Positions 52,249-64,000 of a stretch of DNA of 64,000 bases are shown here, piece by piece. Each line of letters begins with the position of its first letter. Positions within the stretch are counted from its first letter, which is position 1. This DNA comes from Aplysia californica. Lineage: Eukaryota. The stretch is from positions 800,056 through 864,055 of the forward strand of contig NW_004797318.1 in NCBI RefSeq assembly GCF_000002075.1, written 5' to 3'. A program made the translations under genes and the position numbers. The notes beneath the pieces are model-generated. The model searched no databases. It worked only from the letters and a program-made list of their open reading frames with translations, and had not been told where the DNA came from.

Positions 52249-55200
52249 TCAGAAGGGTTGGGGGTTGGGAACCACCACGATGTTTTTCCTCGATTTCGTA
52301 CGCAGAGGTTGGCCGGTCAAACGACGAAGGTTTGGAGGACCCGGAGATTTTGACCGGGCTCGAGCTCCGTCCCCGTTTGCTGCCAGGAGGTGACCCCCAG
52401 GAGACTTTGACCTTGACCTAGCTCGGGTAGGATGCGGCGAGGACAGGTGTAAACTGGAATTGTCAGGAGCGCCAGTAGCTCCTTCACATGAAGATAAGTG
52501 GTCTTCCTCCTTACCACCTATGGCGTCTTCTGATTCCACGCAGGTAGTTGAGATCTGTGGAATCTCCATCCGAGGAGCTCCTGTATAACGCTGAGTAGCA
52601 CGGCCTCTTCTGCTGCTTTCTTTTGGTGCGTCTTTCTCTGCCTGATGTGCCGCTTCTTCCGGTTCAACAATAATGACAGGTTGTACTTGGACTTTCGGAA
52701 CCGTGGGCGTCACTTCTTGAACTGACGTTAACTTTGTTACTTCCGAGTCAGTCGTATCCTTTTGCTCGCTTTTCTTCTTCTTTTTCTTCAGTTTCTTCTT
52801 CGCTCCGCCTTCTTCGTCTGCCACAGGGCGGTCATCACACGTGGAACTATCTATTGTTCCCGATCCCCTCTTTGCAGACGTCTTTGTACTAGATACCTTC
52901 TCAGTGTCTGATTCTCCATCTTGAGGAGATTTTGCTTTCTTCTTCTTCTTCTTTTTCTTCTTCTTGCGTGAAGGTTCATCACTGCTACCAACAGCATCAC
53001 TTGCTTTTTCAGCTTTTTTCTTTCCTGACTTCGTTTTGTCAGTGTCTGATTTGGCATCAGATGTCATGTCTTGGCTATGACTGTCGCTGGCCTCGATTAC
53101 CTCCTTCAGACGCTTTCTCTGAAGTCGACGTCGTTTGGACTTGGAGATCGTACGGGGTTCCGTTTTAGCGGCCATTTTGGATTTCTTTGATGGCTTCGAT
53201 GAACTGGGCACAGTATCAGAGACGGCAGACGAGGACTCTCCAGGCTTTCCAAGTGTTTCTATCTCAACAGATGTTGACAGCGTCTTTGGCCTGTCTATTT
53301 TTATGCCAGACATAGACGCATTTGTTTGGTTGGACAGCGCAGATGAATCACCGGCTGGTTGCTCTCCGGGCTGCTCAGCAATTTCGTCCAGTCTCTCCTC
53401 CGAAAATGGATCAGTCTCCATTTCAGCTTCTTCGAAGGACTGGTGCCATTTTCCGGGATCATCACTGATGGTCCTCGACAATGACGCAGACATTGACCTT
53501 TCATAAAGGGAGGGAATTCTTTTCTTCTCTACATCACCAGTCTGTTCTTGTACACTTTCACACGTCTGTGAGGATAGTTGAGCCTGTGAAAAACTTTCTT
53601 CTTCTGTCATCATTTTCTGCTGTGTGTTTTCCTTCGAATCCTCAATGGAAGCCCCCGAGAGGTTCTGGGTAGCAGCGAGTGAGCCGAAGGCTCCAGGCAC
53701 CTCCAACTGATTTGAAGAATACCTTTCAAACTCCACGACTCGAGAATGTTCGTCGCACGGACTAGCAAGGGAGCTCTTGGCATCTTCGAGAGCAACTTCC
53801 ACCTCTGCCATGAGTACAATCTCCTGAGAAATAGCTGACGCTAGCTCATCGCGTAAACGCTCCTGAAACATGGAAGCTTCCAATTCTTCATTTCCCAGTC
53901 TCTCCCCACCTTCTCTCTCGTCTTCTTGTTCTTCTTCCTCTTCCTCTTCCTCTTCCTCTTCCTCGTCGTCTTCCTCATCATCATCTTCATCCTCATCGTC
54001 TTCATCTTCATCATCATCTTCCTCTTCATCGTCATCTTCCTCATCGTCATCTTCATCGTCCTCATCTTCCTCTTCGTCCTCATCATCCTCCTCGTCTTCG
54101 TACTCATGTTCTCTATCGTCGTCACTGACGAACTCTTCGTCACCATCATCATCTTCGCCTTGCTGAGACTTCCCATCTTGAGCAGTCTTAAGCTCTTCAC
54201 CAGCTGGGCTTTCTGGTGCCTCACCTGGCGGATCAGAGCCTTCTTTCTCTAAGGGCACCGACGAAGAGGTAGCAACTTCAGCAAGCGACACATCTCCTTC
54301 TGCATCACCTGTTAGTGGTCCTGAAACAGCTGGTGCTGCTGACAGACTCTGGTCGAGCAGTCCTGCGAAAGACATACTCTGCTGTTCCTGAAATTCAAGC
54401 ACCTCGTTCACGATATTCTCAGCCACTTCGTCCGCATGCTTTTCGTCAAACTCTGCTTCAGATCCCATCTCAGTTTCAGTAATCTGCTCAACATGAGACT
54501 CAGCGTCTGGTGTCATATTTGTGGTGTTCTCTGCCTCGGAATTGGTGGGCATGGCCATATCTGTGCTCGATCCGTGGTCTATGAAAGTAGAGACAGCAGA
54601 TCCTAGTGTGGCTGATGAGTCATCAGGAATTATTTCGGTATCATTTTCTGCCTTCACAGTACTGCCAGTTTCTGCTTCGATAGCAGTTTCTGTCTCTGCT
54701 TCAGTAACTGGGTCATTGTCCGTTTGGACATTGTTTAAACTGTCTGCTTCTACAAGAATTTCTTTTTCTGCCTCAATGGCACTTTCAGTTTCTGTTTCAG
54801 CAGCAGCTTCACCTTCTTGTCCAAACTTGACCGTAGAAGCATTGTCTTTTTCAGCCAAGGCAGCCTCTGCATGTACAATTCCTGCTTCACCAATGCTTTC
54901 TATCTCTTCTTCGATAACATTTTCAGTTTCTGACTTGATGGCAACGTCACTCTCTGTTTCAATGGCTACCTCTGATTCTGGGTCGGCAGATTTGCCGATG
55001 GCGTATTCAGTTTCAGTTGTAATAGCAGTTCCAGTCTCTGTCTGAACAGACGTAAAATCAACAGCAGAATCGACCACTGCCATCTCACTACTAGCAGTTA
55101 TCGCTTCTGTTTCAACAGAATTTGAAGATTCAACATACATTCCAGTTACAAAATCTATGTTTACATCCATTGCTGCATCCGTGGAATTGGCAGTTGACAG

Positions 55201-64000: not shown

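Follow-up and report, generated by a model that had tools for sequence, protein, structure and literature searches.

A spliced gene of Aplysia californica predicted to encode a giant, mostly disordered acidic protein

The minus strand of a 64,000-nucleotide stretch of the Aplysia californica genome (the window, C48:800056-864055, where C48 is the contig that carries it) contains the 3' end of a spliced gene whose longest predicted form would comprise approximately 13,900 residues. The open reading frame is confirmed as real and spliced by contigs that skip its introns. The reading preferred here, to which we give an even chance, is that this single-copy gene specifies an intracellular, disordered, acidic and polarised spacer with a KH head, phospho-gated docking modules and a basic anchor tail.

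Exon structure and transcript evidence

Within the window, exons A to D (Table 1) join in frame, all with AG and GT ends, to encode 3,324 residues and a stop codon. The first-pass annotation had described a protein of more than 3,300 residues with an 8,285-nt terminal coding exon, another exon of more than 1.3 kb, and two small exons between them. The terminal exon D and the small exons B and C were found as described, in frame, and the length is right for the visible part, which is only the last quarter of the predicted protein. The second large exon also exists, but its true size is 32,680 nt rather than about 1.3 kb, and the protein is therefore about four times longer than the part first read.

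Table 1. Features of the gene, in window coordinates unless the contig is named
Feature	Position	Strand	Basis
Candidate KH exon, 137 nt (outside the window)	C48:904602-904738	-	AG and GT ends
Exon A, 3' end	62658..64000	-	donor GTGAG at 62658 shown by RNA-derived contigs
Exon B, 187 nt, conserved amphipathic helices	61952..62138	-	55% identity to E. crispata segment
Exon C, 161 nt, Ser/Thr-rich linker	61307..61467	-	in-frame join, RNA-derived contigs
Exon D, coding part, 8,285 nt including stop	52249..60533	-	in-frame join, RNA-derived contigs
Conserved amphipathic helix, start of exon D	60472..60528	-	conservation
Conserved short hydrophobic motif FRLxTLYY	58483..58515	-	conservation
11-12-aa EQ[S/T]P repeat array	56103..58053	-	nothing aligned to it in either Elysia protein
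Conserved amphipathic helix, DEVAENIV core, AKAP-like lead	54397..54435	-	core invariant in three of three species
Pure D/E tract, 57 residues	53929..54099	-	sequence
Best-conserved block of exon D	53779..53862	-	75% identity to E. crispata over 36 aa
Basic block SKxRRLQRKxL with poly-Lys run	52936..53148	-	conservation
Conserved basic C-terminal motif RSKSP..P.LRRLTGQ	52252..52362	-	scores 118 and 108, shuffled sequences reaching at most 57
3' UTR	50001..52248	-	contig cover to at least 50001
Candidate ATTAAA signals beyond the 3' UTR stretch	49968 and 49927	-	sequence

The length of the open frame in exon D excludes a chance origin (log10 P about -73, from base composition alone); the two other frames contain 105 and 308 stops. 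Thirty of the 40 listed differences (of 110) fall in this exon, of which 13 are synonymous, 17 are non-synonymous and none creates a stop (pN/pS 0.37). The stretch is present in 20 of the 24 sequencing runs listed. The runs were taken as RNA by guess from their records, but contigs in all three contig runs skip the predicted introns between exons B and C (61467/61952) and between exons A and B (62138/62658), with CT..AC ends on the plus strand and a depth of 0-0.19 in two intron bins, and must therefore derive from spliced RNA. The joint between exons C and D is absent from the table of joints, and in two of the three runs (X6 and X7) the coordinates of the aligned pieces sum exactly to 61307/60533. 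None of the three joints was seen among the 224 reads that raw-read run X24 placed on the stretch. The junctions that the first-pass annotation proposed to check in RNA were recovered in these contigs, and the exons in the window, for which it had held that missing transcript coverage would tell against the gene, are covered by intron-skipping contigs. Over C48:895001-905000, four contig runs left both the candidate KH exon and the initial 392 nt of exon A uncovered; as contigs report presence only and more than 40 kb separates this site from the message's 3' end, nothing is concluded from the lack of 5' cover.

Exon A extends from C48:862713 to C48:895392, with 31.3 kb outside the window. Its frame is open to C48:895440, a run of 10,926 codons from stop to stop in the 210 kb fetched upstream, and its predicted acceptor is a pyrimidine-rich AG at C48:895392, where the alignment with Elysia proteins begins at the first codon of the exon. 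Only one strong pyrimidine-tract acceptor occurs inside the 32.7 kb. Upstream of the predicted acceptor lie two near-copies of it, with a spacing of about 100 nt (C48:895392-895600), a tandem duplication of the splice site. The sole interruption of the frame is a run of 182 N (C48:873507-873688) inside a repeat unit, probably a gap left in assembly: at this place the N-bearing unit gives 61 codons and three intact units 74, and by comparison with the intact units the frame would be open across it.

Together, exons A to D comprise 13,770 codons (61 of them unknown) for a product of 1.52 MDa with a pI of 4.05, in which Asp and Glu make up 28.1% of residues and Lys and Arg 5.7%, for a net charge of -3,069; this composition suggests a mostly disordered, extended chain. 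Exon A contains N-terminal motifs, 17 RPx[S/T]P modules, poly-E tracts and the acidic 8-aa repeats that had been noticed at first reading, which give 18 motif matches with a 24-nt period. None of nine coding pieces of exons A to D exceeded a Pfam cut-off, in agreement with the initial impression that the visible part has no recognisable domain, and self-BLAST with low-complexity masking yielded nothing useful. In searches of the genome, exon B, a 121-aa piece of exon A and a 50-aa piece of its repeats each matched this locus alone. A hydrophobic, possibly folded island of 120 aa, itself single-copy, lies in exon A (C48:889588-889950); its first part aligns with E. marginata, and it has a TRGY anchor in common with both Elysia proteins. 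A further candidate exon (C48:914872-914705) was set aside as being without support.

The downstream neighbour, on the same strand, is the gene for the RNA polymerase I initiation factor RRN3 (window 29954-30499; Pfam RRN3, E 9e-14), of which an open reading frame with no Pfam match at 32579-32926, also on the minus strand, may be another exon. Just past the 3' UTR is a broken LINE-type element on the minus strand (44737-47437), with RVT_1 and DUF6451 pieces in different frames, and on the plus strand two adjacent open reading frames of 182 and 209 aa (21585-22955) resemble a decayed DNA transposase, with no Pfam match at E 0.001. Elsewhere on the contig, both on the minus strand, are a multi-exon cysteine-rich gene with the WAP four-disulfide core and some duplicated stretches (C48:965900-979600) and a gene with a trypsin-like peptidase domain below cut-off (C48:1005541-1009256).

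Orthologues, conserved anchors and the repeated module

When the 660 N-terminal residues of exon A were compared by phmmer with 1.84 billion proteins, there were four hits: P0001 (E 5e-21), P0002, P0003 and P0004, of which the last, a protein with PKD repeats, was dropped as a compositional false hit. The P0001 cluster includes a hypothetical protein of Elysia crispata (KAK3775647.1 = RRG08_049828, 3,094 aa), the N-terminus of which, used as query in a word-based search, retrieved a hypothetical protein of Elysia marginata (ElyMa_001339700, 4,645 aa) as the one hit among 440 candidates. P0002 and P0003 are short unnamed fragments homologous to the 5' part of exon A; the source label of P0003, 'merc', we take to denote a marine metatranscriptome catalogue. 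A word-based search with the first 400 aa against proteins of 701-2,000 aa found no homologue, and was insensitive, since it missed P0001; a further word-based search gave one hit among 7,992. The two Elysia proteins are the only full-length orthologues found by these searches, and the family is so far known only from sea slugs, a range that the word-based searches are too insensitive to bound.

Both Elysia proteins align with the predicted protein in short blocks spread over the whole chain, the first at the opening codon of exon A and the last in the final 40 residues. Fourteen anchors occur in the same order here and in E. marginata, and 13 of them can be recognised by pattern in E. crispata (the poly-Lys run differs), a conservation that rests on three full-length sequences only. 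The conserved islands along the chain are short amphipathic helices and linear motifs. The spacers between anchors vary several-fold across the three species: the distance from the start of exon A to exon B is 10,897 residues here, 3,420 in E. marginata and 1,928 in E. crispata, in proteins of 13,770, 4,645 and 3,094 aa, respectively. In E. crispata, the genomic read-through frame departs from the gene model where exon A ends, and in one record (P0008) the frame stops approximately 90 codons into the exon, indicating that the E. crispata gene model bridges a break.

Within exon A are units of approximately 230-340 residues, each built around a 50-residue module that contains an RPx[S/T]P motif, an acidic patch, a hydrophobic KPI motif and, later, a Phe-rich acidic motif. 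The RPx[S/T]P motif occurs 17 times here, eight times in E. marginata and three times in E. crispata, against means of 0.1 or less in shuffled sequences, and all 12 genome matches of a 50-aa piece of the unit lie inside exon A. Among 14 copies with a strict core, dN/dS is 0.12 for the 28-codon core, a value biased downward by the relatedness of the copies and their choice by core match, and 0.55 and 0.36 for the flanks; the low core value indicates that the middle of exon A is translated and that the core is important. The kinase Dyrk1A has RPX(S/T)P as its consensus, which is found also in MAP1A and MAP1B (PMC3325943).

The candidate KH head and the basic tail

At its N-terminus the E. crispata model has a KH_1 domain (27.2 bits against a cut-off of 21.5) that, among solved structures, is nearest to those of Nova-1 and FUBP1, with best PDB matches at E 4e-8 and 1e-6. 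Its best match genome-wide in A. californica (C48:904738-904602, E 0.039; local tblastn, E 3e-5) is a candidate exon on the same strand as exon A and 9.2 kb upstream of it. The 45 aa of this exon align to the E. crispata KH domain and give no Pfam match by themselves, and neither the first and last KH exons nor the linker exons were found by scan or tblastn; N accounts for 6,025 of the 9,209 bases between the candidate and exon A and for 25,263 of the 60,762 lying upstream of the candidate. The upstream search for an N-terminal domain that the first-pass annotation had suggested produced this candidate and the 32.7-kb exon, but no Pfam match over cut-off among the 150 best-ranked of 422 minus-strand open reading frames of at least 30 aa. 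From one automated model and from adjacency, a KH domain likely caps the far end of the giant protein; against the link stand the E. marginata model, which has no KH domain, and the finding of only one KH exon here. In the E. crispata domain the loop reads AKNG; here it reads x-E-N-G, with an intron interrupting the codon of its first residue and the exon before that intron not found. PMC3413153 ties the loss of nucleic-acid binding to that of the GxxG loop, which makes RNA binding by this KH domain uncertain.

One transcript would join the KH exon, the whole of exon A and exons B to D. Alternatively, the full 41-kb message may never be made, with a product that starts within exon A and a separate or rare transcript that carries the KH exon and the 5' part, as the KH-free E. 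marginata model, the early break of the E. crispata frame in one record and the unbridged N stretch would allow. This we consider very unlikely, given that conserved blocks spanning codons 1 to 9,550 of exon A are colinear within single Elysia models, that the module core is under purifying selection, that the exon has a single strong internal acceptor, and that P0002 and P0003 are short homologues of its 5' part.

Exon D bears most of the other features that the first-pass annotation had listed. The EQS/TP repeats that it had put at roughly 900 aa are present, although the regular array (58053-56103) spans approximately 650 aa, and approximately 850 aa with degenerate flanks; the pure D/E tract, the Lys clusters (a run of 10 Lys at 52965-52936) and the Arg/Ser/Pro-rich basic C-terminus are as it described them. 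The last 300 residues or so are net basic in all three species.

These features bear on a second alternative, a nuclear or granule ribonucleoprotein scaffold in which the protein would bind RNA through its KH domain, be targeted to nucleoli, speckles or germ granules by its poly-Lys and RS-like tail, and act as a chaperone of basic proteins through its acidic tracts. The resemblance of the E. crispata KH domain to Nova-1 and FUBP1, the basic block, the poly-Lys run, the RSKSP tail and the poly-D/E tracts would all suit such a role, but the KH domain is single and, in E. crispata, its loop is non-canonical, and a product of 1.5 MDa would be unusually large for nuclear import; we regard this scaffold as distinctly unlikely. 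Type I KH proteins such as Nova-1, FUBP1 and IGF2BP contain multiple KH domains and are not known to bear a giant acidic arm, whereas here, despite a KH_1 match over cut-off in E. crispata, a single KH domain with an AKNG loop in that species accounts for less than 1% of the chain. AKAP1 (D-AKAP1), with a Tudor domain beside a C-terminal KH domain, was considered and rejected: the KH domain is N-terminal here, and no Tudor family was matched.

The conserved helix at 54435-54397 is perhaps an anchor for the RII subunit of protein kinase A (PKA), a lead only. It has a hydrophobic moment of 0.50, at the 98.8th percentile of 14-mers in the protein, and several other conserved helices equal it. An RII-binding consensus pattern matches this helix here, neither of the Elysia proteins at the same position, and 11 places protein-wide. 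AKAP helices are amphipathic and of 14-18 residues (PMC13025221), and further AKAP features were taken from PMC10990152. A profile of the helix searched against solved structures did not find an AKAP peptide, and profile searches of two helical segments against PDB sequences gave only matches with E above 0.5. The predicted fold of the exon B-D segment (pLDDT 53, pTM 0.28) consists of four low-confidence helices and had no structural match, and the protein shows no enrichment of PKA sites (R[RK]x[ST]). RII-type D/D domains are present in the genome, in an exon on contig C123; a third, RII-like D/D exon is on contig C706, and an apparently intronless second gene for an RII-type regulatory subunit of PKA is at C1:4496396-4497511.

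The same helix enters a third alternative, a more specific version of the preferred reading, in which the protein is a MAP2- or Futsch-like microtubule protein that also anchors PKA. MAP1 and Futsch are recognised by MAP1 N- and C-terminal domains, and MAP2 and tau by tubulin-binding repeats. The net basic tail with Ser-Pro sites, the invariance of the helix core in three of three species together with a moment in the top 1.2% of 14-mers, and the RII-type D/D domains are in keeping with this version, and MAP1A and MAP1B carry the Dyrk1A consensus (PMC3325943). Nevertheless it is rather unlikely, as neither the coding pieces nor the Elysia models contain a MAP1 or tubulin-binding Pfam family, the AKAP pattern is scattered over 11 places here and missing from the helix in both Elysia proteins, and the helix profile retrieved no AKAP peptide from solved structures. 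The acidic low-complexity arm and basic end recall those of MAP1A, MAP1B and Futsch, as do the RPx[S/T]P sites, and the AKAP-like helix recalls that of MAP2; unlike in these proteins, a candidate KH exon stands at the front.

Known giant-protein families and possible significance

The first-pass annotation had offered two identities, a giant isoform of an ankyrin, Futsch/MAP1, nesprin or titin-like gene, or an undescribed lineage-specific spacer or scaffold. An ankyrin is the first to be excluded, because a gastropod ankyrin with two non-homologous long exons (7,569 and 6,560+ bp) is published (PMC5135030). The trait of one or two very long low-complexity exons is present here (32,680 and 8,285 nt), and the giant ankyrins covered by PMC5135030 (Drosophila Ank2-L/XL, UNC-44 and the gastropod protein) share with this gene tandem giant exons, fast-evolving acidic repeats, for which a role as molecular spacers has been proposed, and a folded N-terminal part. 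The present gene differs in being a separate locus in which ANK, ZU5, UPA and death domains were not found. None of the six ZU5 matches in the genome lies on C48; the one on contig C14 is presumably of ankyrin type, judging by its motif. Another, at C81:320253-320498, is in a single 760-aa open frame behind Gln/Pro/His-rich repeats. No ZU5-ZU5-UPA cassette was found upstream or in either Elysia model, and no ANK repeats or death domain in the Elysia models or in the 150 best of the 422 upstream open reading frames, a region of which 31 kb is N. The published repeat consensus motifs of the gastropod ankyrin have no match in this protein.

Spectrin repeats with CH and KASH domains, or Ig/FN3 arrays, mark nesprin- and titin-like proteins; spectrin, Ig, KASH and the other families of this kind were absent over cut-off from the coding pieces and Elysia models, a Big_11 match in E. 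crispata being below cut-off. A giant isoform of an ankyrin, or a nesprin- or titin-like gene, is thus already largely refuted and scarcely credible: the tandem long exons shared by gastropod and fly ankyrins (PMC5135030) and the N-filled bases upstream of the KH exon leave it some room, but ZU5 lies elsewhere in the genome, the published exon sizes and repeats differ, and the Elysia models have no ANK, ZU5, spectrin, Ig or KASH domain. With no Pfam family of these or of Futsch/MAP1 detected, the first identity was not upheld. The second gains support from the two orthologues, both hypothetical Elysia proteins, with scaffolding as a predicted function. By its features, the predicted protein behaves like the giant-exon spacers yet does not belong with ankyrins, MAP1/MAP2, nesprins, titin or AKAP1. 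A functional analogy may be drawn with Ki-67, which likewise has a small folded head, phospho-site repeats at its centre, a C-terminal anchor and the role of a charged brush, although there is no sequence match and the present chain is strongly acidic and several times longer. No description of the protein was found in a literature search that fell short of most subscription journals.

In the preferred reading, of a polarised acidic spacer, the basic tail would anchor the protein to a polyanionic surface, whether microtubule, RNA or chromatin; the acidic chain would extend by self-repulsion and set a distance, as a polarised brush; the RPx[S/T]P modules would dock a partner under phosphorylation by a proline-directed kinase; and the KH domain would sit at the free far end. 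The anchor, the kinase and every binding partner are putative, and charge pattern and motifs do not discriminate between cytoskeleton and nucleus. A bolder proposal, which we rate as rather unlikely, is that these proteins constitute an undescribed sea-slug family of KH-headed giant acidic spacers, independent of ankyrins and MAPs, that, in the member described here, would hold an RNA-binding head, 17 kinase-gated modules and a PKA anchor away from a basic anchor by a distance that differs between species, and would so serve, in very large cells, as a ruler for local translation or signalling.

If the full form is made, its coding exon A exceeds every exon in the published table of giant ankyrins, the longest of which is 27,804 bp (Table S4 of PMC5135030); no citable general record for coding exon length was found. 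The full form would also be a near domain-free protein of 1.5 MDa and a second, independent route to the giant-exon spacer design, from a large gene that the searched protein collections represent only by hypothetical or partial models. The three orthologues amount to a natural experiment in which motifs are fixed, spacers vary several-fold and modules number three, eight and 17. They single out a few segments of the chain, and allow spacer length to be compared with cell or axon size, a question that has also been raised for giant ankyrins.
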